Notes: generated from the sequence alone by a model not told the origin. Positions 5,125 through 35,819 are shown, numbered from the whole stretch's first letter. The stretch: 58,822 nucleotides of DNA, filler included, from Sphacelaria rigidula (GCA_964200075.2; 8 parts of 8 records of this genome joined end to end with filler, not necessarily neighbours in it), one strand, 5' to 3'. Translations and numbers: made by a program.

Positions 5125-5622
5125 TTTGGCCAACTCTAATGGGAGCCGTTCGAAAATCCTGTTGAGAACTACCTTTTGGATGATTCTCCGTCGTTTTACG
5201 CCCGAAAAGAGAGCTACTGTAGGCGCGGATGTTAACGCCTTGACGCCTTGGAGTGTCTTGCTCTACTCGTTCAGACCATTTCAGGGTATTTTTGCGTTCC
5301 CAGGTGGCCGCAGTTTTCTTTTTGCCCAAGGTTGCATTTTCAATTCAAAACGGTTAGGTAATCAAAATACGGACAGTTCTCCCTCTGTTGATATTTTTTT
5401 CCAACTGACCGCCTGTTTTTGAAAAATTCTAGTTTTGCCAAAAATAAACTGCGGCCAGCGGGAAACGCAAAGTTGCCCTGGAACGGTCTTAACGAGTAGA
5501 GTAAGTCATTCAAAGGTTTCAACATGCGTCTAGCCCTCTTTTCGGGCGTAAAACGACGGAGAAGGGCCCAAAACGCGGTGTTGAACAGGATTTTGAGCTG
5601 CTCCCATCAGAGTTGACGGTGA
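5125..5622. mobile_element. Foldback/MITE, long imperfect inverted repeat (family shared with 35374-35800)
   Basis: The left arm ccaactctaatgggagc...tctccgtcgttttacgcccgaaaagag is the reverse complement of the right arm ctcttttcgggcgtaaaacgacggaga...gctcccatcagagttg. The arms run almost to the centre near 5380. Confidence 0.75.
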
Positions 5623-6247
5623 TTTATTTATTTTTTCGCAATTCCGGAGATGAGGTGATGAAAAAAATCCCTGGGAATTCAGTCAAATGAGCTCATCCTG
5701 AAAACACGCACTCGCACGCACGCATTGCTAAAAGATGAAAATCACTTCCAACACTCTTTTCTTGTCCACAAAACCTCTCTCCCGTAGTCCCCCCCAGAAT
5801 ATTGAATAAAAGCAAGAGCTCATCCCCGTCTCCTGGCGAATAACACTCACACACTCACACGCACTCCCGAACAGGCCGGAGATGCGGAGGCCCTTTCCTC
5901 CGTGAAGAAGAAGAAACACAAAAATCCGGATGCACGTGCCCGACGCAAGGACCTCGCAAGGGTCAAGGGGAACCTGAGTCGCGCTCGGCATCACGTGTGT
6001 GGATTCTGGTTCTCCAAGCAGCCGTTCGCGGGTGTGAGCGGCTTCAAGCGCCGTGTTTTGCTGGTGAGGACTGAGAAGCGCAGGCGTGTGGAAAGGGTGT
6101 CTTGTCATGTGCTTCCCTGTAGTTTTTTTTTTTTTTACTCAAAGGAAGTGGACCCAACGCATACCCCATGTTGATTGAGTTGTTTGTCGCGGTTCACTGA
6201 TCAACAACTGCGCACGTCGAACAGCTCATGAGCTACCTGGATATTAC

Positions 6248-6685
6248 CATGGGTATACACGTTACACGTGACGTATTAACGTGACGCATTCGAAAAAACA
6301 TAACTTTGGGCCAATTAACGCTACGTGAGGTTTGATTTTTTGGACGGAACAAATGTGAAGTAACGTGATGTAACGTGTGGTCCTTCGCATGAACCCCACC
6401 ATAGCGTTTTACTTTCCAAATGTGACGAAAACTCTTGCATTTTTTCGTGAATTTGTAGCGTGTCGCGTGTCACGTGTCACGTAAGAAAAGAGTACAAAAA
6501 CAGCTTCTTTTTTTTTCACGTCTGGGAAATCCCGAGAGACACTGCTTCAACGTCCACACGTTGCATCACGTTACGTTACATTTGTCCCGTCCAAAAAACC
6601 AAACCTTTCGTAGCGTTAATTGGTCCAAAGTTACGTTGTTCCCGGTTTTTCCAAATGTGTCACGTGTGTAACGTGTATATCCTTG
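6248..6685. mobile_element. Non-autonomous hAT-like MITE with 8-bp TSD
   Basis: Ends CATGGGTATACACGTTACAC...GTGTAACGTGTATATCCTTG, with inverted arms of about 130 bp. Exact direct repeat GATATTAC at 6240-6247 and 6686-6693. An 8-bp TSD with CA..TG ends is typical of hAT. Confidence 0.85.
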
Positions 6686-7266
6686 GATATTACTTGTTAT
6701 TAGAGTACTGATCCGGATCATGAGCTAGCTCATTTGGTCACTATTTCCGTATTAGCTCCCGACAGCGATGGACGCCAAGCATGTGTTGCACCGGGAAGGT
6801 AACGCTCTGGCTCCTCGGAGAGCGCTGTCACATGCTTTGCGTTTTTGTACAAAAAATCTGAGAGTTCTCTCCGATCAGTTATTTGGGGTAGCTAATGACG
6901 TGTCCGACGTGTGAATAGTTGCAATAGACGAAAAACGTGCTGCGTTAAGTATAGGCGTATACTTAACGCTTCGGGAACCGATTGACGAGTTTTATTTTTG
7001 TGAATCGGCACCATATTGACTTGAAAATGAGTGAAAATGATGCCGATTCACAAAAACAAAAACCATCAATGGGTTCCAAAAGGGTTAACGCAGTACGTTT
7101 TTTTTTGTCTCTTGCAGTTATTGACCATATTTTGTCCAAGGTGAGGAGAATTGAGCGGTGGTTTTATGAGTCATGAGATGGATGTAGAAGCCAACGGAAA
7201 TACTGGCTGAATAAAATACATCCGGCACCCGAGGGGGGGGGGGGTGTACTCATGATCATGCATGCC

Positions 7267-7366
7267 NNNNNNNNNNNNNNNNNNNNNNNNNNNNNNNNNN
7301 NNNNNNNNNNTTAATTAATTAANNNNNNNNNNNNNNNNNNNNNNNNNNNNNNNNNNNNNNNNNNNN
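7267..7366. other. Artificial contig linker (N44-TTAATTAATTAA-N44). Identical linkers lie at 14633-14732, 21999-22098, 29364-29463, 36729-36828, 44094-44193 and 51459-51558
   Basis: Each gap is 100 nt with a six-frame-stop spacer. The intervening contigs are 7266-7264 bp, in descending order. Confidence 0.97.
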
Positions 7367-9280
7367 GAAGTTAAACCTCAATTCTCACAATTTGTTGTTA
7401 GTGGTAAAAATGGTGTCTTTGCGCGCGATTTTGTACACCTCAGAGATGTTTGGTGGTGGCAGCGTGCAAACTGGGACCAGAAGGTCGGTCGAAAAAGGGG
7501 CGGGGCAAACAAACCGTGAGTAAAGAATGACTGAGCGGCACAGTGCTTTCCGCTTGTTGTTTGCGAGCCCGGTCGTGATGGAAGTAGCTGGCGAGGATCC
7601 CGCGCAGTTGGGCTTCTGCCGGAGAGCCGACCAAACATGGTGGTGCAAGCAGCGATGGAATAGACGACGAGTAGGGATGCCAAGGTCAGTATCCACATGT
7701 GAGTCGTGCCTGTGCATGTGGCCTCAGAGATTGCTGTTGTGAGTTCACTCAGTCCAGAAGACATCGACATCGCCCTCCTTCAAGCTTGTTACTGCAGATC
7801 CTGGGATACGCATGGTTGATTTAGGAAGCGTTCCCTAAGGATCGGGGGAACCCGCCTCCCCTCTCCTGAAAAGGTCGCGACCCCTGCACTGTTGGCCGGC
7901 AATATTTATCCAAAACGATGCTGAAGCCCAAACGGTCCAAATATCTCGGTGGTGCATTCTACCCTCTCCATTCCCGACCCGTTATTCCTACAAGCTACAC
8001 TCAACTCTACACGAGCCATTTTCCGCAACTTCGGTTGGTCCCAGTGTTGAAATCATCCGTCGAGGGTTGTATATGCAGTTCCGATCCACCAATGGATACT
8101 ATTGGCCTGGAGTAGCTGCTCACACGTAGGGCAAAACGGCGTATACACTTTCAATATCGGCTGGCGAGAAACCTGGAATTTCCCCCTCCGAGGGAAGGGG
8201 GGGGGGCAGGGCTAGGTATCAACACTTGACGCGCACGCCGGTATCCTTGAGGGTTATTCCGTTTTTCTATTATTTCATATTTATTCCATTATTTTATGTC
8301 ATGGAGACCGATCGTTTCTCGTTCTTCTCGTTAGCCTTGCTCTCTTTTCCTTTCCCTTTCATGTTTTCCCTGTGTCCCTCGATTTTTTTCAGTTTACTCC
8401 ATTCGCCCTCTCTTTTTGACTTCCCCCCTTTAATTTTGCTTCCGCGAATGCTTGCGCTTATATTATCTTGGGTACGCCACCTTGTGACCACGGCTGGATC
8501 CTTCTCCGGTCAGTTTATGTGCGGTCAGTTTATGTGCGACAATGACACCTGGCCTGACTTTCCACCACAAAAGGTGGATTCTGGTCTCTGGGAGCTCGAC
8601 CCCTCAAATATACGTCGGAGTGGACAGCCATCTGGCTTCTTACTCCAACCGAGATCGCGGCGCTGCGGACGGTCATCAAGCAGGATCGATCGTTCATTTC
8701 AGCCTCCCCGCCCCCCGGAATAAGGGCGAAACACCGCCCTTTTCCGACCGAGTGATATTTTTCGGCCATTCGCCCATGCAGAGTTGTGCCCGAACAAAAA
8801 AAAACACTTGATCTAAAAACCGTAGAATATTCCAAGATGATCACGACGTACGTCATCGAGTACGGTCAAGGCCCGTGTAATCGTACTGTAACGGATTTTT
8901 TTACCATCGCACGAAGGAAATATAGCCTTGCGCAGATTACTCTACATATTGCCGACGGTGAGGCCAGATAACAGCCCACATTGATTGACCTCTGCCCTAT
9001 TTTCTCCAAGTAACATGCATCAAAGGTCATCCAAAAAAAGAGCGCGAATGCATCGCTGCACACTAGAAAAAGTGACACCAGAAGTACCTGATAGCCACGG
9101 GCCGCAGATACTCAATCCACTCTCGAGAGGCCCAGTCACAATTATACCGAAGGACTGATGCCGTAATAGCACCCCTCCTAACGAAAAGTGGCTGCTTTGA
9201 GAATGATTAGGCTGAGCACAGTGAGCAACTTGAAACTCGCACCCACGAATCAGAATTATGAGGCTGAGCACGCCGTGTGC

Positions 9281-9282
<2 letters not shown>

Positions 9283-9333
<51 letters not shown>

Positions 9334-9595
9334 TGTGTTTGTGTGTTTGTGTGTGTGTGCGTATGTGTGTGTCTTGTGTGTTGACATCCCATCTATTCTG
9401 GGCGCCGGTCGACGCCTTTCGGTATATGTGGGCGCACCAGCCAGGGTCACACAGGAGGAAGGTCAACGCAGGAGCTCTTCATTTTATTTGTTTTTCAGTA
9501 CCCCACCTTCCTTCCGCGGTGCTTGTCTTTACATTTCATCGCGAGAAAGGTTTGGCAGTCCCTTTCCCTCGTCGACCGTTAAGTCGCTTTGTTTT
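9283..9595 (-). mobile_element. SINE family 1, 5'-truncated copy with an expanded (CA)n tail
   Basis: Shares the body ...tatatgtgggcgcaccagcc.gggtcacacaggaggaagg...cctcgtcgaccgt with the other copies. The (GT)n run at 9283-9380 sits in the tail position. Confidence 0.8.
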
Positions 9596-11869
9596 TTTGC
9601 CGAGAAGCTGGTAAATTGCACGTTCGGGATCATTTTCGCCGGTGTCGCCCGTATGAGGTGCCTCATGCGGTCTGATCCCAGTCATCATGCATGCGTTGTA
9701 TTATCATTTTCTTCGCGACGGTTCAAGAGTTTGTTCGAGGGAGGGGCTATCGCGGCATCACTCGTTGATTTAACCGCACCAAACGACGAGATCGGTCGAT
9801 TTGTACGAGAGTACTGTAAAAGGAAGAGGTTAGCGAACAAGGCGTTCTTATCAACGTATTAGTTCGGTGTATGTGTTGTGAGGGAGTTTCGCATGTGTTT
9901 TGCAGTTCCAAGGCAAAATGCCAAAACTGTACTCCCTCATGATATAAACGTCGACGAAGGCTACGCTGGGAAAACGAAAAAATGTTTTCCCGAAGCTCTC
10001 GAAAATGTTTTGAGGCGTTTTTTGAGCGGTGGTGAGCTCTGCCGGCTGGTAATTGAAAGAGACGTCGATCGATCTGGTTCTCTCGATATGTGAAAAGCTG
10101 TTTGCTGTGGTGGAACTCGCCATTATATTCTAGTCATCGTTCACAAGCTTTGTGTTATTCCCACATTTTCCAGCGGAAACTCGCGGTTCCACGTCCTGGT
10201 GCTGGAAAAATCGCTTTTGACACGTGTGGTTAGAGTAGGCAACTTGTGTTGGAGTGATTATTTTGATTCACTTGCGTGACGTCCGCATGGTACCGCGCAA
10301 ACAATGGGGCACACCGCCAAAAACCTACAGACCTCAACTCTGCAATGCCACTAACCCTTTCTTTCTGTCATTACTTTCGTTTTCTCACTGCATGCCTCGA
10401 AACACATGGTTTTTGGGTCAACAACATGATGCAACCTATTATGAAACCGATGGTCTTTCAGAAGTGCACGACTGTACAAAGAAGATGCCTATAGAGGTTT
10501 CGCTTTTTTGTTGGTCAGCGGAAAATATATGAGCCCCTGCCTCCCAAGGTTCCACGCGTGCTTCGCGGTGCTCTGGCAAGATGCCATTAAATAACACCGC
10601 CGACCAGGGGTTGACCTCCAATCGTGCGCGCACGCCCGTGTCTACTCAAGCAAGGGTACTCAGTGTCACCTGTGCTACTTTCCAAGTACCGTTGGGTCAA
10701 ACACATACAATGTAACCGCCCTCCTTTAATTTTACGTCAATCCCGTGAGAGCTGGAGGATTGATCAAATACCCGTCATGAAACCAGAGCGTCGATTGCGC
10801 TCCTACTGACCGTACCTATAACTACCTACGACCGAAGCCACTACTTCACTCGGCGAGGACTGGACCACCGAAGGAGTCCAATCTAGCCCGAGTCTTGACA
10901 CATCAAGGGTATTGTGTCACGTCTCATAAATGCCCCCCCTCCCCCCCTGTCTTCCTTCCATCCTGCCAACCTAGCGTAGTGCGTGCACTTCGCCAGAGGG
11001 GGAATTCGTCCCGTCGTCTGCGAGAGGATCAGGCCACCCCCACTTGCGTAAAGAAAGCATTGAGGACATCAGTATTCACACGAGTGAAGGGGTTGAGGCG
11101 CATGTGATGGAAGTTGTATCCGGTGGTCGCCGTTTTACGATAAAGGTCCACTCCGAAGAACAGATCGTGGATGTTGCACCTGCGTGGGTAGTTCAGCGCA
11201 CAAAACAACCGACCATTGTTTGGGCGAGTTTGCTGGTATCGATCGGTTGAAGACAGTAGCTTCTGTGCCTATGATATTGGAGTCTTTCTATGATAGCTCC
11301 CCCATAAAGTCAGCCCAAAGCTGCCACAAAGAAAATAGTCATACATCGCCTGATGTTTGGTTTCAGGCTCCATGAAGCGCCTCATATGGGCGGCATTGGC
11401 GAAAACGAACCCGTGCGTAGGAATTCTCAGCTGCTCGTTGTGCTCGGCTTTTTTCATGTCGATTCACGTGTAGACTTTGCCTCCCCAAACCCGCCACTTT
11501 TTTGGGGGGGGGCGTTATCGTAGAAAGACTCATTGGTATTATTCCCGTTGAAAAGTGCCTAACTATATTCTGCTTCAGAGTCTCAACCGTGACGTGCCGC
11601 TGGGCCAAATTGCTTCGAATCCAAACTGGAGATCATCTGAATTCGTTGAACATTCCGGTGGACGTACATGTCGTAGGGCGCACCAATGCCCTAGACATTG
11701 GATAATCAATCAACCAACTCGTTATTTTCACTTGTCGCATTCTATCCCAGCGACACCGTGCGTTTACTGATATGTAGTAATACTTGACAGCACGTAGCAC
11801 CCATGCCTTCCGACCTTTAACTGCAAGAGTGTGTGTTTATGTAGGTTCCCTACTGTGTGGTATACCCGA

Positions 11870-12075
11870 TGTAATGCGTGAGAGGACCGCGTGCTTAAAG
11901 GACCGCATCGGAATTCGAACATCCCCATGGTTAGGGTTAGGGTCAGGGTTAGTGTTGGGGTTACGATCGGGGGCATGGTACCTGCAGGGACTATTGGCCT
12001 GATTGGTTTTGAAAAACATCAATCCTGACGTGTTTTGAACTACAGCGCAGTCCTCCAAACACGCGGTCCTCTCAC
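11870..12075 (+). mobile_element. Telomere-repeat MITE, copy A (right TIR lacks its last few bases)
   Basis: TGTAATGCGTGAGAGGACCGCGTGCTTAAAGGACCGC...ggttagggttagggtcagggttagtgttggggtta...cacgcggtcctctcac. Confidence 0.85.
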
Positions 12076-12563
12076 TGAAAAAACATCGGCCAGTTATGGG
12101 CACACTTTACAGGACAGAACATGGACCTGACATTTACTTATCCACATGTTTTCTGTCAAGTTTCACTCACTTGTAGTTTTTGAAAGCGTGGACCTTCTGA
12201 GTGTACGATGCGTCTGACGGGGCTTCCGTGATCTTGTCATGGACTAGAGTGAAATACCGCGTGCTGATCATCGGACCATTGTTGACCTTTCGCGAGTATC
12301 GACAGCAAGGGAGACGTGGCGTCAGCGGGCGCGAGCGTGAGAGCGTGAGTGGCGATCAAATGGCACCAGGACGATTGAAAGCACTGTCATGTTTTGTTCA
12401 TGTTTTAAGCAAGTGACACCTCCGAGGTGTACAGCTGGTGCGGTTCCCAAGTCGCGTTCGGCCACTTCGGGTTGTTGCAAAGCGTTCCAGCGCACCCACA
12501 CGCTCGAGGCACAGTCAGCAGGTTGGGCGATTACACACGCGGCCATTTGGCCACCCCCCACCA

Positions 12564-12812
12564 TGCCTCCGGAGGGATGCGCGGCCCTCCAGGGGGAAAA
12601 CAAGCCTTCGGAGGCCTTCGATCCCTCTGGAGGAAATCAAACACTACCGACCCGGAGGGCCGCGCACTCCCCGGAGGGGTTTGGGGGTTTACGCGGCCCT
12701 CCAGAGGCAAAATAAGCCTCCGGAGGCGTTTAATCCCTCTGGAGGAAACAAAAAAATCTCCTCTGGAGGACCGCGTATCCCTCCGGAGGCGTTTCAGTCA
12801 TCTGGAGGCTCG
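12564..12812. repeat. Array of CCTC(C/T)GGAGG short palindromes in a ~115-bp higher-order repeat
   Basis: About a dozen variants of cctccggagg/cctctggagg/cctccagagg. The block cgcggccctccag.gg.aaaa.aagcct.cggaggc.tt..atccctctggaggaaa occurs twice. Confidence 0.7.
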
Positions 12813-13248
12813 AAACGTTGACCCACCTGGTGGAATTTTGGAGGTAGTCAATTGGCTGCGTGTGTAGTCATTCGAGTCAAAGTTGTATCAATTGGGTGCT
12901 AGTATTGGAAATACGATCTCAAATACCCGTCAGGTGTGCAGCAGGCACCACTTGTGACAGATCTTGTCTACAGTTATTTGGATGCCGGCTGAACTCGCAT
13001 CAAGGTCACGCGACCCTTACTTTGTTCTTCGTGAGGAAGCATGACATGGTCATTTCTGCACAAGTGTACACTTGTGGACTCCATCGATGCGATATCATCG
13101 TTCAGTGTCTTTCAGCATTCGGTAGACCGTCGACAAGTGGGACCTGTTTGTGAGAAATCCAATTCATTAGATACACAGTTTTTAGGACCTTCATCGGCAG
13201 AACTAGTTACGGTTCGGCATGAGCAGCAACACAGCAAGTAGAAGGTAA

Positions 13249-13418
13249 TGTAATGCGTGATAGAGCGCCTATTTTTTGTACCGAATCGTAGTTCAAAACA
13301 CCCCAGGATCGACATTTTTCGAAACCAATCGGGCTGCAGGGACCAGGCCCCTGACCCTAGCCCCAACACTAACCCCAACGCCAACCCGAACTTTCCGATG
13401 CGGTGAAAAAAGCACGCG
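13249..13418 (-). mobile_element. Telomere-repeat MITE, copy B (degenerate, reverse orientation)
   Basis: Starts TGTAATGCGTGA. Internal gtagttcaaaacacc.caggatcgac...aaaccaatcggg...ccctgaccctagccccaacactaacccc matches the family. Confidence 0.7.
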
Positions 13419-13427
13419 ACGCTTCAG

Positions 13428-14025
13428 TTGTGTGTATTGTCATCCTCCATCTCTTCTGGACGCCGGTCTACACCTTTCACCTTTCGCTATATATGTGGGC
13501 GCACCAGCCGACGTCCCACAGGAGGACGGCCGACATACCCTGAAAGTTTGTTTTGTTGTGTTCATTTCAATTCTCCTTCCTGCGGTGCTCGCTTTGATTT
13601 TTTCGCGAGAGGGGTTCAGATGTCCCTTTTCCTCGTCGAGCATGATTGTAATGCGTGAGAGGACCGCGTGCTTAAAGGACCGCATCGGAATTTGAACATT
13701 GCTATGGTTAGGGTTAGGGGGTCAGGGTTAGTGTTGGGGTTGTAGTCAGGGGCGTGGGACCTGCAGGGACTGACTCGACTGGTTTTGAAAAACGTCGATC
13801 CTGGGGTATTTTGAACCACGGCGCGGTCCTCTAAGCACGCGGTGTTCTCACGCATTATGACAATGATGTCGAATTGTTGTGTACCCACGACATGTCGCTC
13901 TCCACTGTTGGGCATTTGGTGAGAAACTATAACTATTATTCCCGGATCGCTCCGGGATTTGAACCCACAACTCAACCGTCCGAATGTTTCGAAGCTACCA
14001 ACTGAGCTACCGAGGCGACTGGCGA
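13428..14025 (-). mobile_element. SINE family 1, full-length copy interrupted by MITE copy C
   Basis: The minus-strand head gtcgcctcGGTAGCTCAGTTGGTagc...gtgGGTTCAAATCCc contains pol III A and B boxes. The body matches other copies on both sides of the MITE. Confidence 0.8.
13647..13862 (+). mobile_element. Telomere-repeat MITE, copy C (nested in a SINE, TSD ATGAT)
   Basis: Both TIRs are present, the right one with a 3-nt insertion. ATGAT at 13642-13646 and 13863-13867. Confidence 0.85.
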
Positions 14026-14214
14026 CGCTACTGTTACAGTAGATCAGATATTGACAATACAGGTATAGGTATACTAGATGAATGGATAGCTCAACCAAGC
14101 TGTAAGTGTGAAAATAGTGAAGAGCTTTATTCGAAGTGTACAATATGCAGTAGTGGGCGGTCTAACTATTTCGAGGTGTTTGGGGGTTTTCCTTGCGTAC
14201 TACTCTTTGATAGA

Positions 14215-14400
14215 ACTCGAAATTGCTAGCGTCGGAAGATTTTGGCACAAAAAAACAGATAGTCTTCGAAGCACAGTGCCAAAGCCAGTGTTAGTTGGTG
14301 TTATCGGGCGAAACAAGTAAACACCCCGTTTATCAGGAGGGTGTTATTGACCGTAAACAACAGTTTTTCGGCCCTAGTGCACTGAGGCCAACTCTTATGG
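14215..14400 (+). repeat. Dispersed repeat, also at ~31885-32230 and ~32385-32560
   Basis: Shared text gaaa.tgctag.gtcg...cagtgcc.aag...ccccgtttatcaggagggtgttattg.ccg. Confidence 0.7.
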
Positions 14401-14732
14401 GAGCGTTTAGAATTTTGTTTTGCAATAATTTTAAACATTTTTTCTTCTTCTTTGCCGTAGTTGTGTATTCTGTGCCCGTTCACCATGATGACAAAGAAAA
14501 AAAAACGCCTCTGAAATTGTTGCAATCTTTTTTTTCACTCGCTCCCAGAAGAGTTGGCCTGAGGCCGTGTCTTATCAACTTGTTATGGTGTTGAAAACGT
14601 GCGGTCGAATCGAATTCGCTCGTTTCTGAGATNNNNNNNNNNNNNNNNNNNNNNNNNNNNNNNNNNNNNNNNNNNNTTAATTAATTAANNNNNNNNNNNN
14701 NNNNNNNNNNNNNNNNNNNNNNNNNNNNNNNN

Positions 14733-14938
14733 TGCGTGAGAGGACCGCGTGCTTAGAGGACCGCGCGGTAGTTCAAAACACCTCAGGATCGACGTTTTTC
14801 AAAACCAATCGGGTCAGTCCCTGGAGGTACCACGCACCTAACCATAACCCTAACACCAACCCTGACCCTAACCCCAACCATAGAGATGTTCAAATTCCGA
14901 TGCGGTCCTCTAAGCACGCGGTCCTCTCACGCATTACA
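14733..14938 (-). mobile_element. Telomere-repeat MITE, copy D (at contig start)
   Basis: tgcgtgagaggaccgcgtgcttagaggaccgc...cctaaccataaccctaacaccaaccctgaccctaacccc...gcggtcctctaagcacgcggtcctctcacgcattACA. Confidence 0.88.
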
Positions 14939-16431
14939 GTATGGACAGCGACGAAGATCCGATAAATAAATGTGTAGACACGCAAGGAAAGATACGGCGG
15001 TAGACACGGAGAGACGGGGAGCGAGAAGCAGCTACTGGTATATATATACACACAAACACAAACGAAACACTATGCGCAGCCGTGAGAATAGACCGAGACT
15101 TGATGTCTTCATCGCGGAGGTACCCGATCGTTTTGTTTGTCATCATCAGCTCATTTTGTGCTGATGGGAAAGATCGCAGCATTCCATCCGAATCTCGTTT
15201 CTTCGGCCAATTCCGTCATATCTCGAAAAAAATCAAGACTTGGTCTCTCATCCACTTATCATCAATAGAAGGCCGCCTCTGCAGGCAAAGTAAGCGGAAG
15301 ATACGCATACACGCACACATATACAGGCAGATGTAGAGGTAGGGAGAAGCAGATAAGAGATCACCCAGGGAAACGAAGAGATTGAAAGGCAGCAAGGAGG
15401 CGCGACAGCTGCGCTGCCCTATCGACCGTTTTGGAATATGACTGAAAAGGATACACGACCATGCGAACCCTGTCGTGAGGCAATGTGGGCCAGTGTCGTG
15501 GTACAGCGGAAGAAGAGCAAATCTACGGTGTATACCTGCAGCCGGTAAGGTTGAGCCGCAAAACGCGGTAAGCAACCGCAGCACATTCTCGTCTTTCTTC
15601 AAGAAAACTCACCATTGTTGTTGAGACGAAACCGGTTCATCACGAACTAGGTTTTGGCAACTGCCCCGTTTCACATATATGTATATAGTCTATGTAGATT
15701 GTACTTCCACGTGTGCCCGCCACGTCAGATGTTGTGTCCACCCCAGCGAGCAAGGTTGCAGTAGGCAGTGACTCTGGGTGCCTTTCTTGAGAAGCGCACA
15801 GAATTTGATCATGTGTTGAGTAGCAGAATTTGTGGGGGTGGGGGGGCGGGCGTTTCGCAAACGCAGCACGGAACAAACATGCAGTCATTTTCCACACAAA
15901 AACTGCCTTGACGAGATATATTTCACGAATGCGGCCAAAATTCCAGAACTTGTGATGACTTGACCGCGGCTGCTCCCCCCACCACGTCTTTCTTTTTAAC
16001 CTGAAAACAATCTGCGTGGGAATCGAAGACTGTAGAGTAAATGTGTGCGTGAAATTGTGCGCGAGCGTGATGCTTCAAGTAGAAGAGGTGAGCGGGTAAG
16101 AAAAGACCGTCGGAGGCGTCGTCTGTTGCGCTGTTTTTGACGGGACTGTCAGCCTTTTCGCAAAACCCGTCGGACAAAGCTGTGGGAAATTGCTAAAAGG
16201 CCCCTTTAGCAGCAACATTACCCGGTTACTTTTCGCGTCCTCTATCTCACTCTCTCTGCGCAAGCGTGCTGCTCCCTTTCTACCCTTCTCTCGCTGTGCT
16301 GCTGCTGCTGTTATCGATCTGCTCCTCGTGTGTCTCTTGTTGGTGTTACAACTCACCACAGCCAACCACCGCCACACAGCCGTAGTACTGAGTACTGATC
16401 CAGAAGGTGAAGGTGACATTGAGGGTGACTG

Positions 16432-16568
16432 ATGTCCGTGACTGTAGTATCCTACCCACTGGACGTGCATTCCGACGACCGCGAGCGCGTCCTGGGCAAG
16501 GTCCAAGATATAGTCGTGGATCTACTTGATCAACTTGCTGGGGGTGATCTGCCGCGCTTCGATACGGA
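16432..16568 (+). CDS. SPO11-2: SPO11 (SPO11-2 type meiotic topoisomerase-like protein), coding exon 1
   Basis: ATG...GA|gtgagt. Reads MSVTVVSYPLDVHSDDRERVLGKVQDIVVDLLDQLAGGDLPRFDT, which resembles the Spo11 N-terminal helix (vl..ie.lv..ll..l..g..P). Phase 2 matches exon 2. Confidence 0.75.
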
Positions 16569-17872
16569 GTGAGTGCCGAGGTGCTGTAGTACGGTTGATG
16601 GGAGGTCAACGCTGAGGGCATCGCACTGCAGTTGATTTCGCGTGTGACCGCATGATGAGCCGCTATCATATCATTCTGACATTTTATGGTGCAATGATTC
16701 CGTCCGCTGCAGGCGACGTTGGGTTACTTGGCTTTGTATTCGGCAGGCTTGACCACATATAGAGTGCAATGTGTCTAGTGGGCTTCTGCTGTCGTCGTCC
16801 GCGAAATATGTATACTGTACTCCGTACGTTTTTTAGTACCACCTAACTGTCAGCGGCAAGGTAGAGAAACAAGGGAGGAGGGGCATGGATACCTACTGAG
16901 AAAACCTCTTCCCCGCTTGAAGGTGATGCGTAGATTAGAACAAGATATAGGTCGCGGTGTGTGTCTCTGGTCCATGCCCATGAGTGGTGTCGATAGGTTG
17001 TACATAACCCCCTTTAAGGTTTCCTACTGTGGATAAAGTAAGAAGTAGCAACGTCAAAAGACTTCTATACGCATCTCCCATGCCCGCCTCGGTGATGCAT
17101 TTTCGTACGTTTCCGTGCAAAGGTTTATGGCGCTGGCTACTATAGTAAATGCGTCGCCACACTTTCGCGTGCGACATCAGCATTAAACTGATGTGTACCA
17201 CCGTCGCATCATTGACCATCGTCCCTAACCAAGATATTTGGTTGATCTGTTCTTGGCTGACTGCACATACGTCTGCAATAATAGTAACGAGGAAAGCGGA
17301 AGGACTGGGAGCTGTACATGTATCTCTTGCGAAAACTACAATTTTCTAAGTAGGGCACTTACCGAGCGTGCTGTTCAACGCGTGACTGCATGAAAATAAA
17401 AAGATGCTCCATAATACAACGTTAGGGTCAACAGCGACAGACACGAGGACTACCTCGAAGAAGATGGCGCACGCCATGTCGGCGAGGGGACAGCAGGTAG
17501 CAACCGGTGAGACATGTGATGCTGTTGGCTCCGGATCCTTTCGAAGCGGTCCGCGAAACTCGATCACCATCGCTGTTATGGCTTTTTGAAGTGGTCACAC
17601 TAGCAGTACAATCAAGATCACCGAAATGCTAGACTTGCTACCGGAGGAGCTTATGATTACCTGCTGGAACTATTATTATCGACACTGTTTTTTGGACATC
17701 TCCGAAATTCTCGGGACGAGCAAAATTCCTGATTCTCGAATGCTTGTTAGGGCGCCACGGCATATTCACAGGGCAGCTCTCCGATGCTGCGTTGCAATCC
17801 AATTTTTTGGAGTTCTCCAAAAATGAAGCTTCGGAGAAAAAAATGAAGCCGCTTCATTCTCGGAGAAGTCTA

Positions 17873-18083
17873 TGTAATGTGTGAGAGGACCGCGTGCTTA
17901 GAGGACCGCGCCGTAGTTCAAAATACCTCAGGATCGACGTTTTCCAAAACCAATCGGGTCAGTCCCTACAGGTACCACGCCCCTGACCCTAACCCCAACA
18001 CTAACTCTAACCCTAACCGTAACCATAGGGGTGTTCAAATGCCGATGCTGTCCTCTAAGCACGCGGTCCTCTCACGCATTACA
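17873..18083 (-). mobile_element. Telomere-repeat MITE, copy E (complete, TSD GTCTA), in SPO11 intron 1
   Basis: TGTAATG...CATTACA with GTCTA at 17868-17872 and 18084-18088. Internal ccctgaccctaaccccaacactaactctaaccctaaccgtaacc. Confidence 0.92.
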
Positions 18084-18139
18084 GTCTACACCCAGAAACC
18101 GAAAAGTCGCACATTTTGACATTCCTGCCCTCAGAAAAA

Positions 18140-18328
18140 AGAGGACCGCATCGGAATTTGAGCATCCCCATGGTTAGGGTTAGGGTTAGGGTTAGGGTAG
18201 TGTTGGGGTTATGGTCAGGGGCGTGGTATCTGCAGGGACTGGCCCGATTGGTTTTGAAAAACATCGATCCTGCGGTGTTTTGAACCACGGCGCGGTCCTC
18301 TAAGCACGCGGTCCTCTCACGCATTACA
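18140..18328 (+). mobile_element. Telomere-repeat MITE, copy F (left TIR truncated), in SPO11 intron 1
   Basis: agaggaccgcatcggaattt...gg(ttaggg)x4...gcggtcctctaagcacgcggtcctctcacgcattACA. Confidence 0.88.
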
Positions 18329-18688
18329 GCCCCAGTGGCTCAGTTGGTAAACTCGACACCTTGTGACGGTTGGCTCGTGGGTAAAAATCTTGGCACAATC
18401 TGGGATTTTTTCTCACACCATGCCCAACACTGGGCAACAACTATGTCGTGGGCACAGAAAATTCGACTTAAGGGTCGACGAGGGAAATGGATTGCTGTAC
18501 CACCCCTCTCGCGATAAAACTTGAAGGCAAGCACCGCAGAAGGAAGGTGGGATACTAAAACAAAGCAAAAATCTCCTGTGCTGACCTTCCTCCTGTGTGA
18601 CCCCGGCTGGTGCGCCCACATGTACCGAAATGTGTAGACCGGCGTCCAGAGTAGATGGGACGACAACACAAAACACACAACAACGCAC
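18329..18688 (+). mobile_element. SINE family 1, near full-length copy
   Basis: A box GTGGCTCAGTTGGT, a decayed B box, the conserved body and an acaacacaaaacacacaacaac tail. Confidence 0.82.
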
Positions 18689-19374
18689 TTATGGGCTGTT
18701 GCTTCCCATACACTTGAACAGAAAACTATATGAAATCATGAGGTACACTGAAATGAGCTTCAAGCCCAAAACAACAGTGCTTTCCCCACATTTACAGCGA
18801 TGGTGCCCGATGACTTTTTTGTCGGCCTACTGCTCCTCGATCGCGTAGATATTTTTTCAGCGCATTTTACCGACTCTGTGAGATTACAGCGCTGACCGAA
18901 GCCCTCTTTTTCCTTTTGTCGTTTAACATGAAATTCCGCTCATAATTCGCTTTGTATATTGCAACTACGGTGTGCACGAACGCGTTCAAGAGAGATGGTC
19001 ACCCTGGACACAACACGGACGGACACATGCCGCACGTTTTAAGCTCCCTGTCCCTCGCGATAAGTCCGTGGCCTCAAGGGATCAACCCATCCCTCCCCCG
19101 ATACATACCTGGCACTTCGGTGTCGTGAGTTAAACCAGTAGAGTACTTACGTACCCCGTCGGTGTTGTCAATATTTTCTCGCCGCTACTACGTCCTCACG
19201 TTTTCGACGGCGAAAGTAAGAGATTCCCTAGAAGAGAACCGTAGAGATTCTAATTTTCTGGGAATCATCTCTACAACGCCTCCTTGACCGGCTTTGAGAC
19301 GTACCAGCTAGACCACTCGCAATATATTTTGATACCAAAATCTGACGTGTGTGCTCCTGAAGAACGTTTGCCAG

Positions 19375-19452
19375 AGAGATCGTCGTGCCTCGGGTGGGCG
19401 CAGACGAAAAAGAGATTGCGAGAGCCATGAGCGCCTGTGCCAGCTACACAAG
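19375..19452 (+). CDS. SPO11-2: SPO11 exon 2
   Basis: tttgccag|A...AG|gtaagt. Reads EIVVPRVGADEKEIARAMSACASYT(S). Phase 2/2 links exons 1 and 3 in frame. Confidence 0.75.
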
Positions 19453-19784
19453 GTAAGTTATTTTGGTTTGAACGGTTGGCGGTTCACCACCACAATGGAA
19501 CCAGGTGAAGTGCCTCAACTCCAGTGCTTTTGTTCGGGTGCACGAATAGATCAGTTGAACACCGAAGTTTTTCATCGTAGTATGCGCAGGATGGCATTGC
19601 TACGGGTGGTCATACCGCTCGTCAACTAACTCTGACGACTACCCTGGAGTATTTCAAGGGATGCGTGCACACAGTGTTGAGAATCCTGAAGCAAGCACCG
19701 ACATGAATGCCATTGTTTCTACTCATGAATACATTATTTGTATGTTCTCTCGAAGGACACGCTCGCTCCCCGACGGGAACACAC

Positions 19785-20001
19785 TATAATGCGTGAGAGG
19801 ACCGCGTGCTTAGAGGACCGCATCGGAATTTGAACATCCCCATGGTTAGGGTTAGGGTTAGGGCCAAGGTTAGTGTTAGGGTTATGGTCAGGTGCATGGT
19901 ACCTGCAGGGACTGGCCCGATTGGTTTTGAAAAACGTCGATCTTGAGGTGATTTGAACCACGGCGCGATCCTCTAAGCACGCAGTCCTCTCACGCATTAC
20001 A
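19785..20001 (+). mobile_element. Telomere-repeat MITE, copy G (complete, TSD CACAC), in SPO11 intron 2
   Basis: TATAATGCGTGAGAGG...CTCACGCATTACA, with CACAC at 19780-19784 and 20002-20006. Internal (ttaggg)x3 plus variants. Confidence 0.92.
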
Positions 20002-20376
20002 CACACTAAAAGGGCGGCCATGTGAAAACGACATATCCCCGCATGACTGTAGTCACTTGAAGTACCCCCTCCCGTTAGCTGAACAAGCAGGTGGGTATAC
20101 ATTCTTAGCATATAGAGCTATATGCATTTGCGCACATTTAGCGAACGCATTTAACAGCACTCGTTCTATATCTGTTCCAGGCGCGTCAAGCAACTTAGTT
20201 GAGCCGAACATAGCACTCTGGCACCGGTATGAAATCTAAGGTCGCGCACTTTGAAATGGGGACATTCATTGCAACAAGCTCGCGCACTCACTCCATTTCA
20301 GAGTTGGATACCTCTTTCACTCCGTGCGTACGTTTCGCTTTCTTCGATGTTAACGTTATATCCAACCGGCGCGCAG

Positions 20377-20479
20377 CGTTCTATGCGTGTTGAGCTTCTC
20401 GTTGCGCCTGCTGGAGAACCGTAAGACGGCCACGCAACGGGAGATTTACTACACCTTCGTGAAGCACTTTACTTCTCAG
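20377..20479 (+). CDS. SPO11-2: SPO11 exon 3 (winged-helix/5Y-CAP domain with catalytic tyrosine motif)
   Basis: gcgcag|C...CAG|gtgtcg. Reads VLCVLSFSLRLLENRKTATQREIYYTFVKHFTSQ, matching the Spo11 T-x-R-[DE]-x-[YF]-Y...F-x-x-Q motif. Confidence 0.9.
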
Positions 20480-20621
20480 GTGTCGCCAATCTGTCCTGTT
20501 TCGGGTGCTGATGATATACGACCACCGATAATGCTGCCCATTTCACATCATGCCCCTCATCACATCAATGATAGCACGCCGGGTGGTTAATCAACAGAGA
20601 GTTTGGCATGATGGACGTCAT

Positions 20622-20832
20622 CGTGATACGTGAGAGGACCGCGTGCTTAGAGGACCGCATCGAAACTTGAACATCCCTATGGTAAGGGTCAGGATCAGGG
20701 TCAGGGTTAGGGTTACGGTCAGGGGTGTGGTACTTGCAGGGACTGGTCCGATTGGTTTTGAAATACGTCCATCCTAAGGTGTTTTGAACTACGGCGCGGT
20801 CCTCTTAGCACGCGGTCCTCTCACGCATTACA
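20622..20832 (+). mobile_element. Telomere-repeat MITE, copy H (TSD GTCAT/GCCAT), in SPO11 intron 3
   Basis: Both TIRs are present and the flanks match at 4 of 5 bases. Internal gtaagggtcaggatcaggggtcagggttagggttacggtcagggg. Confidence 0.88.
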
Positions 20833-21105
20833 GCCATCTCCTTGATGTTAGGACGCGGTATGGGTGACGAAATAGAGAGGTGTTTTTGTAATGCAGATAT
20901 CCCTATCGTTCACATAACGCATTAGAGCAGCACTTCGTTTCGACACATTCGAGAAGATGAGAATCCGGGAACGCGCGCTATTGCTAGTTGCGACTGTCGC
21001 TGTGGTTGGGTTGCCGATGAATTTCTGACCAAATTCAAAATAACGGGCCCTTGTCTGATCACGTAAACCCGCACACAACATCGTCATTCCGCTCCCTTTC
21101 TACAG

Positions 21106-21225
21106 AGCCAGTGCAACGATGCTATCTTGGATTGTTGCGCATTGCTTAGAGAGCCTCGTCACTGCCTCGGTATTGTCGCTAGCTCGAGAGGCTACCTGGC
21201 TGGTAGAATCTCAATCCGTGGACAG
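21106..21225 (+). CDS. SPO11-2: SPO11 exon 4. The gene continues beyond the contig end and the TOPRIM domain is not in this window
   Basis: tttctacag|...CAG|gtatgc. Reads SQCNDAILDCCALLREPRHCLGIVASSRGYLAGRISIRGQ. TQRE plus LGIxASSRG..AGR fits the SPO11-2 clade better than TOP6A/SPO11-3. Confidence 0.9.
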
Positions 21226-22098
21226 GTATGCGGACGGTATGATATAGTCAAGCAGTCACATTTGTGCTCCTCGCCGCAAAGGTACCCAGTACAATATTTA
21301 TGATGAATCGTTAATTATACACTCTGGGCAGGCTCTGGATCCCTTTGCTTCACTGGATATCCGCCGTAGTAGGGGGGACGACAAGAAGCATAGTAACCCT
21401 CACTGTGCCATATCAAACGGCGATGGTGCCTTTGGTTCGAAATGCGCTAATGCAAACGGCTTAACTACGCCCCCACCACTACACCCCCACCACGATCGCG
21501 CAGGCAGTATGCGCTAGAAAAGACAGCGTAAATATTGTTCTAGTTCAAGCGGGGAGCCCCCGGGTTGTTTATACACATTTTCCCGTGAGAGGTGCAGAGC
21601 ACGAACATCGTGACGTTAAAATGTCCATATATCGATAGTAGTAGTAGAGGCACCAGAATTTTCACATGACCTGCAAGTTGTGTCCACTTGGGTTGACCCT
21701 TAGACGTCGAAAGTTGGTCATCTAACAGCGGATTCTCGAAAACGAGGTTGAAAAACAAATGAGGTTCAATCCAAAAACCGTGCTTTCCCTGACCTGAATT
21801 CATGACCAGTGACTTCCACATTGCCCTCAAAATATTTCGAGGGATTTCTAGTCTTCCGTTCCCCTAAAGGGTATGTGCGAAAGCACACTTTTTTTGCCTC
21901 GATTTCGGGGTAAAAAAAAGACGTTTTAACAACAAATTGTGAGAATTGAGGTTTAACTTCGAGATGAGGCTCAAGCCTAAAACAGTGCTTTCCCCACANN
22001 NNNNNNNNNNNNNNNNNNNNNNNNNNNNNNNNNNNNNNNNNNTTAATTAATTAANNNNNNNNNNNNNNNNNNNNNNNNNNNNNNNNNNNNNNNNNNNN

Positions 22099-22245: not shown

Positions 22246-22918
22246 AGGGATAGGTTAATACCTTGGAATCACGATCATCCTTTTGGTATATGTGGTGGGC
22301 GCATCAGCCGGGGTCACACAGGAGGAAGGCCAACACAGGACCTCTTCTCCCGATGGCTACCGTTATATGTTGTATTGTCAGAATGGCATGGAAGCACACT
22401 ACAAAATATCGACTTTTGAGTCTCAACAGTTTTATTGCAATTGAGCTGTGCCTTGAACTGGGCCACAGACTGTATTCGCATCTCCTAAATCGTTCTCATC
22501 CGACTCGTTCGCTCCTTTCACGCTGAAGCAATCCCCTCTGAAGATGCATTCCGAGGGGCCAACGCGTCGAGGGATTGTGACCTTTGTTCCTGCGAAGCGG
22601 TGCACGTCTTGATATGTGCTTTCCTACCAAATAGATGCCGTCTCGGATACCTCCTTGCTGCTTCACCTTCGTGATACTGATACTACTAGCAATACGTCGG
22701 AAATCGCACTTGAATTGATTATCTTCATCAATGGTCAGGGTAGGGTACTCAACCGGAGGTACCCAGGATTCCAGGGTATTTTGGAGTGTACCCGGTACTC
22801 CAGGGTGTATCCAGGTTACATACTTCCCGAAATACCCTACTCTGAACCCCCCCAATCCTAACCACGTGTGGCACTTTTGTCTTCCCGCTCGCTACAAACA
22901 AACATTGCTGAATGGCAG

Positions 22919-23158
22919 ATCTTTGAGCTCCAGTCTGCGCTGCTGGAGGAAGATGTAACAGAGGCGCTACTGCACGAGTGCACGCTGTGGTTTCGGCCGA
23001 AGCATTTGCAAGATATCATTACGGAGAGGAGTGAGGCCGAAGGGATATGTGGATGGCCGGGTTGCCGCAATTCTCTGCCTAGACTGACGGCGGCGCGAAT
23101 GCTCAATGAGTCAGAGGGAGGGGAGTCGGAAAGATTTTGCCGCCGAGCGTGTGCAGCG
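22919..23158 (+). CDS. RPAP2: Rtr1/RPAP2-family RNA polymerase II CTD phosphatase homolog, zinc-finger exon (5' exons not identified)
   Basis: aatggcag|ATC...GCG|gtgggt, 80 codons. LLEEDVTEALL...PKHLQDIITERSEAEGICGWPGCRNSL...RFCRRAC matches the Rtr1/RPAP2 D-x-x-x-ER...CG[YW]P-x-C...FC-x3-C motif. Confidence 0.8.
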
Positions 23159-23471
23159 GTGGGTGCTTTTTCGCATGCCTTGGCTCACGGGGGGAAGTAG
23201 GCACTGCCCTCGGCGTGCAGGGGCCTTGTCTTGAATTGTTCGGATGCGTGTGTGGACGGCGGGTTGGTATATTGGGCGGATGCTGACTTCGAAGGAGTTG
23301 ATGGCAATAGCCTCTGGCACCGGTCCGTGCTATCTACTTCGCCATGGAATTGTTTTGCTATATAATAGCTGCATGCTATACCCCGCCATTCATTTTTCCG
23401 CCGTTCCTATTTCAAACCTTGTTTTCTTCATCGCGGCTGTCGTGTGGTTTTGCTGGTTCGTTCAAGTGCAG

Positions 23472-25287
23472 AAGACAACGCTGCTCCTGTCGAGCATACC
23501 GTCCACGCCCCCTTCCTCGAGGGAAAGCGTCCTCCGCGCCGCTTCCCCGTCCTTGTTCGAGAAATCGACCAAAGGTAAAAAGCCTAAATGCGTTGCGCTC
23601 GCCGGGGACAAGAAGACCTACAAGCGTGCGCGTCGGAGAGATGTTCCGCCCGCTGGAAAAGGACCTGAACCGAATAACCACAGCGGCAGTGGTGGGCAGA
23701 AAAAAGACACTACCCAAGCGGAAGCGAGTTGCGCGAACAGTTCTACCGAGTCTACCACCGGCGTAGATGGAGGGGGCCAAGCGCCGGATGCTGCACAAAA
23801 TACAGGCACCACTACCCCCGGAGGCGCATTTGCTGATTCTGCAGTCGCTGCAAGCACAGGGAAGGAGAACGAGCGGGTGAAACGGGGCAAGCAAGTCGAA
23901 GCAACCGAGGCCAACAAACCGGACGATGAAAGTGTGGACGCTGTCCGAGACGGGATTGCCCATGTTTCCATCACGTCTGCTAAAGGGGCAGATACATCGA
24001 AGGCTACCCCACCGCCGCCGCCACCGCTGGCGGTGGCCGCTCCCGTTGTGGGTGGCATCTCGGCAAACAAAGCAGATGCTACGCAATCGTCAGGAGTACC
24101 AGCGGCAAAGGCGGTGGTGGCGGCAGCAGAGACCGAGACGGCGGCGGCGGCTACGAAGGGCAGGGGGTCCATTGCAGAGGTTGCTCCTTTGGTTCCCACC
24201 TCTGAGAAGCTATCGAACGACTGGGGAAACGTGCGATTTGGTCCGAAGAGCGGAGCAGGATCAACGGTTGCGCTCCATGCATCGTTGGTGGCCGCGGCAG
24301 TTCCGGGCGTGGCGGGCAGCGGCGGGAGGGGTGGCACAGCCCCCGCTGCAACAGTAAAATTACCCGCTGTTACCGATAGTACTGCAAGTGATGATGCAGC
24401 TCCTGGTGGCGTTGGGCCCGTTCTCGCCCCCTCGATATCAACAATGCCAGCGCAAGCACAACAAGACAGAAATAATGAGTCTCATGAGCTAGCATCCGTG
24501 AAGGATCCAAACAGAAAAGAAAAGCCGAGGGATGATGCGGCAAAAGAGCAACACGACGTGGCTGAAGAGGCCACTGCCGCCGTTAGCACACTTGACGACT
24601 GCCCCGGAACGTCGGGCAGTGGAAAAAAGATGGTGTCCTTCGCGGCGGGCACCAAAGATTCCCCCTCGGATACCGCCGCACTGGCAGCTTCATCATCGCC
24701 GTCAAGACCATTTGTTAATGCCACCACGGCGACTTGTGGCAGTGGTGAATCAGGCAGTGGTGGCACCGTAGCGGGCGCCAATACAGGCGGCACCGGCGTC
24801 GCCTTCTGCAGACAGGGAGATGGGGGGAGGGGCAGAGGCAGAGGCAAGGGGCGGGTGAACGTCGGGGGATCGGGAAAAGTACGCCCGACGACCCAAAAGC
24901 CGAAAGCGATCGTGGGAGCGGTAATGGAGAAGATCCCCGTCGTGCCAGTGCCTATGAACGTGACGGCTACCGGCGGCATCGGAGGGGCGGAGGATGGGAC
25001 TGGGGTTGATGGTAGCGGGGGCGTTGGCGGGAGTGGAATGATCGAAGGACATCTACCGAGGATACAGGCGGACTTGTCTTTTCGTGTGATGCCGAGAGGG
25101 TACGAGAAAATGGTTGAAAAGGGCGATGATAGTGACGGTGATGATCAGCTTGAGGTTGCCGGGATTGACGGGAGCCGTGTAAGGCGAAAACGCGAGGATG
25201 AGCGGCAGGGCGACGATGAAAGCGAAGGGCTAGGGGAGACAGACGGAGAAGATGATGATGGGAATGACAGGCGGGAGGAAGTACTTG
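23472..25287 (+). CDS. RPAP2: RPAP2-like gene, very large low-complexity exon (3' donor position uncertain)
   Basis: Acceptor gtgcag|AAG is in phase 0 with the previous exon. About 600 open codons, rich in Ala/Gly/Ser/Thr with an acidic end. Several candidate donors lie near 25270-25294. Confidence 0.75.
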
Positions 25288-25669
25288 GTCGTTCGTGTGC
25301 CCCTTGTCTCGCCAAGTTTACCCAGAGAATGGATTGAAAATACTTGAGAACTTCTGTCGCCTTGCGAGTGTGAGTGTGTGCGTGCGTGCGTCTGGTTTGT
25401 GTCAACGTAGCGCGCTTGATATCTCGAGCAGTTCACGGGTGCCAACTTGGGGCCCTTGAGTTGAACTCCCAGTCGGTGCGGGCTACACTTGTCCTGTAAC
25501 TGGCGGGGCACACCCGCCCTGGTGTGAAAAATTCGATCTCGGTTACTACGGCGACTGACGCCGCTGTCAACTGTGTGGTCGAAGAATAAAACCATCAGCG
25601 CATTTTTTCAGTGCCTGAAACCCGTGCTGACCGCTGAGCCGTTGTTGCGCCCTATTCGCCCACATGCAG

Positions 25670-33242: not shown

Positions 33243-33318
33243 CCTAACCGTAGGCCTAACCCCAACCCTGGCCCTAACGCTGACCCTGACCCTGAGCCTG
33301 ACTCTGACCTCAACCCGA
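33243..33318 (-). repeat. Interstitial degenerate (CCCTAA/CCCTGA)n array without visible TIRs
   Basis: cctaaccgtaggcctaaccccaaccctggccctaacgctgaccctgaccctgagcctgactctgacctcaacc. Confidence 0.65.
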
Positions 33319-35800: not shown

Positions 35801-35819
35801 TTTTTGTTTGTTATTAGAA

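Follow-up and report, generated by a model that had tools for sequence, protein, structure and literature searches.

In a 58,822-nt stretch of DNA from Sphacelaria rigidula (GCA_964200075.2), referred to here as the window, we found a family of short elements that are bounded by terminal inverted repeats (TIRs), flanked by short target site duplications (TSDs), and interrupted at a fixed internal position by a degenerate array of TTAGGG-like hexamers. The explanation that we favor, and to which we would assign a rough probability of 0.6, is that of an old family of miniature transposable elements with inverted repeats (MITEs) of the Ginger2/TDD-like kind in which the hexamer array is a passenger. 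The structure of the copies, their target sites, their abundance and boundaries in public sequencing runs, and their pattern of decay all bear on this explanation.

Architecture of the element

An earlier reading of the window, made from the sequence alone (hereafter the sequence-only reading), had reported eight copies of an element of about 210 bp with a 37-bp TIR containing two sub-repeats, and on these points our results agree with it. The proposed 37-nt TIR (TGTAATGCG...) has 10 matches in the window at up to 3 mismatches, against an expectation of 0 from 100 shuffles, and a profile built from seven copies recovers eight loci, seven of them at E values of 8e-64 or lower and one (13249-13427) at 1e-28; these and all other counts within the window refer to 58 kb of examined sequence. 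The aligned copies give a non-coding consensus of 211 bp that starts TGTAA (TGTAATG), finishes TTACA, and is perfectly complementary over the outer 37 nt of its two ends. Within each TIR, a 10-bp motif, AGAGGACCGC, is present as two direct sub-repeats 16 nt apart (positions 12-21 and 28-37), and all 20 sites of this motif in the window lie inside MITE copies (0.11 sites expected by chance). The copies, with the span of the profile match in parentheses, are as follows.

Copy A, 11870..12075, + strand (11870-12083): left TIR intact (1 mismatch), final 8 nt gone, hence no readable TSD; array at 11929-11976
Copy B, 13249..13427, - strand (13249-13427): divergent variant, E 1e-28, with a 15-nt internal deletion; one terminus lost at the start of the tail of a short interspersed element (SINE; 13428)
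Copy C, 13647..13862, + strand (13647-13859): complete, within a tRNA-derived SINE, with a 3-bp insertion in one terminus; array at 13706-13755; TSD ATGAT at 13642-13646 and ATGAT at 13863-13867
Copy D, 14733..14938, - strand (14732-14938): TIR at 14902-14938 perfect; array at 14832-14879
Copy E, 17873..18083, - strand (17873-18083): complete; TSD GTCTA at 17868-17872 and 18084-18088; array at 17977-18024
Copy F, 18140..18328, + strand (18133-18328): first 27 nt gone, right terminus adjoining the 5' end of a SINE (18329); array at 18172-18224
Copy G, 19785..20001, + strand (19785-20001): complete; TSD CACAC at 19780-19784 and 20002-20006; array at 19844-19897, with one extra unit
Copy H, 20622..20832, + strand (20622-20832): complete, left terminus with 3 mismatches; array at 20681-20728; TSD GTCAT at 20617-20621 and GCCAT at 20833-20837, a 4/5 match

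The earlier description needs to be qualified in two respects. Only half of the copies (C, E, G, and H; 4/8) are complete: A is without its last 8 nt and F without its first 27 nt, B is divergent and truncated, and D runs into the end of a segment, so that its other end is cut by a boundary within the composite window and not naturally. In addition, the coordinates of the eight copies hold, but the copies do not share one continuous stretch. The window is a composite of eight segments of about 7,265 nt, joined by linkers of the form N44-TTAATTAATTAA-N44; the N runs are spaced about 7,366 nt apart, each pair flanking TTAATTAATTAA, and distances or adjacency across the linkers are artificial.

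Linkers: 7267-7366, 14633-14732, 21999-22098, 29364-29463, 36729-36828, 44094-44193, and 51459-51558
Extra run of N10: 58136-58145

Several repeat families are common to the segments (the SINE, for example, occurs in segments 2, 3, 4, 6, 7, and 8), which indicates that the segments come from one genome. All eight MITE copies lie in segments 2 (7367-14632) and 3 (14733-21998). Under random placement, the chance that all eight would fall in some two of eight equal segments is about 4e-4, and hence either the family is locally clustered or segments 2 and 3 are neighbors.

In copy B, both inner sub-repeats read TTTTTT..ACCG in place of TTAGAGGACCG. To judge by these T-rich sub-repeats, copy B looks like a member of a separate subfamily whose putative binding site has changed, and not like a product of random decay.

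Target site duplications and an empty site

TSDs are readable only in the four complete copies. When the flanks of these were compared at lengths of 2 to 9, agreement was found at 5 bp alone, with matches of 5/5 for C (ATGAT/ATGAT), E (GTCTA/GTCTA), and G (CACAC/CACAC) and of 4/5 for H (GTCAT/GCCAT). Further support came from copy C, which interrupts a SINE that has intact relatives elsewhere in the window.

SINE hosting copy C (filled site), 13428..14016, - strand: tRNA-derived
Uninterrupted paralog of this SINE, 18329..18690, + strand: empty site TTAAG in the stretch TTCGACTTAAGGGTCGACG

Five uninterrupted SINE paralogs in the window read TTCGAC, then TTAAG, TTCAC, GTCAC, or TTAAC, and then GGTCGACG, with the 5-nt site present once, while the interrupted SINE reads TTCGAC-ATCAT-[MITE]-ATCAT-GCTCGACG. 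The difference between the filled and the empty site is explained by the MITE plus exactly one extra copy of 5 nt, and the comparison therefore gives independent, empty-site-style support for a 5-bp duplication. The 5-bp TSDs that the sequence-only reading had assigned to complete copies are thereby upheld, both by the flanks (no other length works) and by the empty-site paralogs.

Abundance, boundaries, and age

Contigs from four public runs, belonging to three studies, were aligned to segment 3; three of the runs are of the DNA type (X1, X2, and X5). Single-copy bins had a summed contig depth of about 12-17 (X1), 61-82 (X2), and 23-36 (X5), whereas bins over copies D, E, F, and G reached 77,000-187,000 (X1), 272,000-807,000 (X2), and 112,000-335,000 (X5); copy H straddles two bins, whose sums are lower. 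The ratio of MITE depth to single-copy depth is thus, as an order of magnitude, near 10^4 in all three. Past position 14938, the 137-159 contigs per run in X1, X2, and X5 diverge, their continuations agreeing at only 0.33. This places the end of the element exactly after ...TTACA and indicates insertion at many different sites.

In X1, X2, and X5, contigs also cross from 17-31 nt of unique flank into copies G and H, from which we conclude that both insertions are common to all three DNA-type runs; the strain in X5 is about 0.7% divergent and still carries them. A joint that precisely bridged the site of a single MITE copy would point to insertion polymorphism; among the 15 joints listed, out of 467, there is none of this kind. 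Some contigs join 14938 to 17873 or to 20832, that is, MITE terminus to MITE terminus (...TTACA|TGTAA...); between 6 and 22 per run do so on opposite strands (X1, X2, and X5) and 1-4 in direct order. These could reflect abutted or closely nested insertions, with or without letters between the two ends.

Divergence from the consensus is 3.8-9.0% per copy, and pairwise divergence among the copies is 7.4-16.6% (mean, 11.5%); no copy has both TIRs intact. Mismatches to the consensus are distributed by region as follows.

Left TIR, 3.0%; right TIR, 4.5%
Spacer (positions 38-59), 7.8%; central part (positions 108-174), 6.6%
Hexamer array (positions 60-107), 8.6%, the highest of all regions

Mismatches are significantly rarer in the TIRs than in the interior (18/478 versus 72/959; Fisher p 0.005). 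Of the 90 substitutions, 11 are CpG transitions, the 211 nt containing 15 CpG sites, and hence there is no marked CpG decay. Overall, the family looks old and inactive now.

Proposed assignment to an integrase-type transposase

With its TIRs, its TSDs of fixed length, and its small size, non-coding sequence, and high copy number, the element has the features expected of a MITE, and we regard it as very probably just that, a non-autonomous DNA transposon of the TIR type. The kind of transposase that moved it has to be judged from its ends and its TSDs. Those parts of Bao et al. (2010; PMC2836005) that we draw upon give TGTNR as the terminal pattern of Ginger elements (a pattern also found at Gypsy ends), a 5-bp TSD for TDD-4/5, a 4-bp TSD with a preference for RTATAY for metazoan Ginger2, and TIRs of 45-297 bp for Ginger2; they also mention a 252-bp non-autonomous Ginger2 in Nematostella. 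In the corresponding portion of Kojima (2023; PMC10045372), TSDs are listed as 4 bp for Ginger1, 4 or 5 bp for Ginger2, 6 bp for Polinton, 6 bp with TA..TA ends for IS3EU/GingerRoot, and 3-6 bp for LTR (long terminal repeat) elements and retroviruses. The termini observed here, TGTAA...TTACA, conform to the TGTNR...YNACA of Ginger2/TDD, and the 5-bp TSD lies within the 4 or 5 bp of that group. A Ginger2/TDD-like DDE transposase of the integrase type therefore appears to fit best, a proposition to which we would give about even odds, and, with TGTAA ends together with a 5-bp TSD, the TDD branch would be its best-fitting member. The assignment to a superfamily, which is made via the ends and the TSD only, is plausible but unproven.

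Should this assignment be correct, a transposase supplied in trans would bind the two sub-repeats in each TIR, and the DDE enzyme would cut at the TGT/ACA ends and join these to the target with a 5-bp stagger, leaving 5-bp duplications. The family would have been amplified in a past burst to roughly ten thousand genome equivalents and would now be decaying; that it has spread to many sites, introns and other repeats among them, is seen from the insertions themselves.

Several observations weigh against a Ginger2/TDD origin. The 37-bp TIR falls short of the 45-297 bp that the cited excerpt gives for Ginger2 (although TIR length is a weak guide), and the TSDs, read in the orientation of the element (ATGAT, TAGAC, CACAC, and GTCAT; n = 4), do not resemble the AT-rich RTATAY or TATA targets that the portions of the literature used here mention for metazoan and insect Ginger2, with no target preference given there for the 5-bp TDD-4/5 branch. 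No transposase, integrase, or reverse transcriptase was found among the 216 stop-to-stop open reading frames (ORFs) of at least 85 aa in the window, shorter or broken remnants not having been scanned. Nor does the window contain any longer element with the same TIR, all TIR matches being in short copies, and the exact TIR pattern has no locus in the metagenome, prokaryote-genome, and viral contig collections (a gapped pattern of the termini only gave none in metagenome contigs). The TSD evidence consists of four complete copies and one empty-site comparison, the figure of 10^4 is a depth ratio and not a strict copy number, and TG..CA ends with 3-6-bp TSDs, in the sources as excerpted, also mark LTR retroelements. 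Of the non-autonomous Ginger/TDD-like element envisaged by the sequence-only reading, then, the MITE with TGT...ACA ends and a 5-bp TSD stands, with Ginger2/TDD as its best match, while the integrase or DDE protein that would go with it is missing from the window's ORFs of at least 85 aa.

Some of these same facts would sit comfortably with a transposase from outside Ginger2/TDD, either that of another superfamily with 5-bp TSDs or that of an undescribed DDE lineage. Transib and the hAT5 group of hAT can give TSDs of this length; Transib ends are CAC..., and hAT ends are YARNG. The absence of a transposase among the 216 ORFs of at least 85 aa, TSDs unlike the reported RTATAY/TATA targets of Ginger2, and a TIR below the Ginger2 lengths listed in the available excerpt are all in keeping with such an origin, as is the fact that the host lineage appears poorly sampled, protein searches returning unnamed assembly-derived matches only. 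However, the TGTAATG termini match neither the CAC... of Transib nor the YARNG of hAT. Moreover, TGTAA...TTACA does match the TGTNR given for Ginger and Gypsy ends, and a TSD of 5 bp is listed, in the part of PMC10045372 consulted, for Ginger2 and for LTR elements and retroviruses and not for Ginger1 or Polinton. On balance, we consider a source of this kind rather unlikely.

As a second alternative, the 211-bp unit could be an LTR, either a solo one or one that belongs to a terminal-repeat retrotransposon in miniature; its TG...CA ends and 5-bp TSDs would then stem from reverse transcription followed by insertion through an integrase of the retroviral type. TG..CA termini with 3-6-bp TSDs are typical of LTR retrotransposons in the accounts excerpted here, and every complete copy has its own TSD. 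The present element resembles Gypsy-type solo LTRs, as these accounts portray them, in its TG...CA (TGTNR) ends, in a TSD within the range of 3-6 bp, and in the kind of DDE chemistry. It differs from them in that its ends form a perfect inverted repeat of 37 bp whose sub-repeats are duplicated, an arrangement foreign to LTRs, and in that no associated retroelement interior was seen. Neighboring copies occur in both orientations, no pair of copies in the window flanks an interior with reverse transcriptase or integrase (ORFs of at least 85 aa), and the 137-159 contigs per run show no common continuation beyond the terminus (0.33) and hence no evident shared interior resembling a primer-binding site. 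More generally, direct pairs sharing one TSD around an interior with primer-binding site, polypurine tract, reverse transcriptase, and integrase were not found in the 58 kb. We therefore think an LTR origin very improbable.

Returning to the Ginger2/TDD-like MITE, comparison with known members of this group reveals likenesses and differences. As in Ginger2/TDD elements, insofar as the excerpts describe them, the ends are TGTNR (here TGTAA), the element is bounded by TIRs, the TSD has the 5 bp of TDD-4/5, and a MITE-sized derivative (about 250 bp) is on record. Unlike the Ginger2 elements in these excerpts, it has a TIR of 37 bp (versus 45-297 bp), TSDs that are not RTATAY, no linked integrase-like transposase, and an internal array of telomere-like hexamers; its copy number, too, is orders of magnitude higher than that of Ginger2-1N1_NV, for which more than 50 copies are listed. 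The portion of PMC3845634 used here describes Ginger2_NA MITEs of Bombyx mori and Rhodnius prolixus, whose TIR starts with TGTTACGG and whose TSDs are TATA. These insect MITEs are likewise non-autonomous, have TGT... termini, and were assigned to the integrase type from their ends and TSDs (PMC3845634). As reported in that portion, they measure 531-651 bp, have a 4-bp TATA-like TSD, and number in the tens to hundreds of copies, whereas the present MITE measures 211 bp and has a 5-bp TSD without an evident motif. Neither Ginger nor MITE nor SINE is mentioned in the main text of a preprint on brown-alga genomics (10.1101/2024.02.19.579948).

If the link to Ginger2/TDD is true, an integrase-type MITE would have been unusually successful here, in a group of hosts from which there is little documentation of this superfamily. 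As matters stand, the family amounts to an old MITE of the ordinary sort that carries an odd passenger.

The telomere-like hexamer array

The array occupies consensus positions 60-107 in all eight copies, and in the consensus it reads TTAGGG TTAGGG TCAGGG TTAGTG TTGGGG TTATGG TCAGGG GCGTGG, with two perfect units; judged by its succession of units, it is too regular for chance. The fixed position and the variable number of perfect units noted in the sequence-only reading are both recovered, with the number ranging from 0 to 4.

Perfect TTAGGG units per copy: A, 2; B, 0; C, 2; D, 2; E, 2; F, 4; G, 4; H, 1

The longest perfect run, TTAGGG x4, is in copy F. Slippage could explain the one or two additional perfect units in copies F and G. 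The degenerate units TTAGTGTTGGGG are shared with the divergent copy B, indicating that decay of the array is older than both the subfamily split and the amplification. These counts are of TTAGGG, which may or may not be the telomere unit of the host.

It has been proposed (in the sequence-only reading) that such arrays could bind telomere Myb proteins, fold into G-quadruplexes, or seed telomere addition; on this view they would be retained for such a role, and the MITE would spread these sites. The array does lie at the same position in 8/8 copies (variant B included), its perfect units have been expanded in F and G, and some 10^4 copies would contribute very many short TTAGGG pairs. However, the array is the least conserved region of the element. 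Its mismatch of 8.6% compares with 3.0-4.5% in the TIRs and 6.9% in the other internal parts, and the expectation that it would be better kept than the flanking interior thus fails (Fisher p 0.37). With only two perfect units in the consensus, it decayed before amplification and was never corrected. A canonical G-quadruplex motif (loops of up to 7 nt) is present in 1/8 copies, namely, copy F, although allowing loops of up to 12 nt raises this to 6/8. We therefore find a telomere-related function highly unlikely, and the array is read instead as a passenger, nothing in its sequence indicating selection upon it.

Within the favored account of a Ginger2/TDD-like MITE family, the (TTAGGG)-like array would already have been decayed in the master copy, and its drift since then would have kept pace with, or exceeded, that of the remaining sequence. 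It may be filler, acquired when the progenitor lost its interior; its location between two subterminal parts fits filler at the junction of an internal deletion, although this is conjecture. One bolder possibility, which taken as a whole we regard as improbable, is that this is an uncatalogued Ginger2/TDD-like MITE of about 10^4 copies in which the array is telomerase-made filler from break repair in an autonomous parent. One such scar, copied thousands of times, would then be the main source of interstitial telomere-like tracts in the genome, and at these tracts telomere-binding proteins could gather, or breakage and healing become more frequent.

Short interstitial telomeric sequences (ITS) are reportedly inserted at repaired breaks in vertebrates. 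Measured against an ITS made up of tandem perfect units, the present copies have 0-4 perfect TTAGGG units each, and the consensus has two, followed by degenerate ones. Penelope-like elements (PLEs) that are associated with telomeres and carry TTAGGG at their 3' ends are described in the part of PMC4522978 drawn on here. The MITE shares with telomeric PLEs (as described there) and with vertebrate ITS the presence of telomere-type hexamers in or beside a dispersed repeat or a former break. It is unlike them in that its array is decayed and lies inside a MITE of the cut-and-paste type, found in introns and other repeats, while telomeric PLEs, in the same excerpt, are retroelements that prime at chromosome ends with the repeats, and vertebrate ITS are single repair scars. 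In the literature searched, we came across no MITE, and no DNA transposon, whose interior carries a telomere array (Repbase and Dfam were outside this search, and the family may be catalogued already); the available portion of PMC10013865 mentions both MITEs and ITS, but separately.

If the Ginger2/TDD link holds, the family would also explain in a simple way why introns and repeats contain short telomere-like tracts by the thousand, which interfere with scans for telomere motifs, with ITS-based inference of chromosome fusion, and with maps of G-quadruplexes. Annotation calls for masking of both the MITE family and the SINE that occurs alongside it.

Apart from the MITE family, the window has two more degenerate telomere-like tracts, at 33240-33310 and 51197-51241. 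The first is a CCCTAA-like tract of about 70 nt without surrounding inverted repeats. The second is enclosed, within 50963-51282, by a pair of 28-nt inverted repeats that are 89% complementary and 264 nt apart; it is followed by CATCTCCATGG, which resembles the CATCCCCATGG that precedes the MITE array, and there is no clear TSD. The unit at 50963-51282 may be an unrelated or a distantly related element.

Genomic context and other features

Segment 3 contains an exon of a Spo11/Top6A-like gene, which is flanked by copies G and H, with G about 350 nt upstream of it; copies E and F, also upstream of this exon, are probably in an intron. Four MITE copies probably lie within or beside introns of this gene.

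ORF with Spo11/Top6A-like gene exon, 20354..20587, + strand: Pfam TP6A_N, E 1.1e-8, 35.2 bits against a cut-off of 26

The SINE family into which copy C inserted is represented throughout the window.

tRNA-derived SINE family: 9357-9590 (-), 13428-14016 (-), 18329-18690 (+), 22279-22347, 36829-37081 (+), 37148-37295, 46768-47100 (+), and 54721-55082 (+)

It has a head with A- and B-box-like motifs (GTGGCTCAGTTGG and GGTTCGAATC, judged against the A- and B-box consensus), a conserved core, and a CA-rich tail. SINE bins are deeper than MITE bins, with a summed depth of up to 571,000 in X1. Neither Rfam, at gathering scores (0 matches in the window), nor ARAGORN (0 tRNAs in the window) calls the SINE.

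Other protein-coding features were as follows; Helicase_C_4, RPAP2_Rtr1, and Acyl_transf_3 (twice) are the only domain matches among the 216 ORFs of at least 85 aa.

Strawberry-notch C-terminal domain (Helicase_C_4) fragment, 1698-1967, + strand
RPAP2/Rtr1 domain (RPAP2_Rtr1), 22862-23197, followed by a 700-aa open frame, 23235-25334, + strand
Two Acyl_transf_3 pieces, 53021-54001 and 55940-56263, - strand

Unnamed proteins of an assembly-derived database match the 700-aa frame at 100% and 69% identity. Long self-complementary, foldback-like stretches were seen at 5131-5615, 6247-6686, 32004-32175, 35348-35826, and 36938-37295, those at 5131-5615 and 35348-35826 being related to each other (67-70% identity). 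Finally, a cluster of direct repeats of 29-71 nt, arranged around the palindromic motifs CCTCCGGAGG and CCCTCTGGAGG, occupies 12540-12830.

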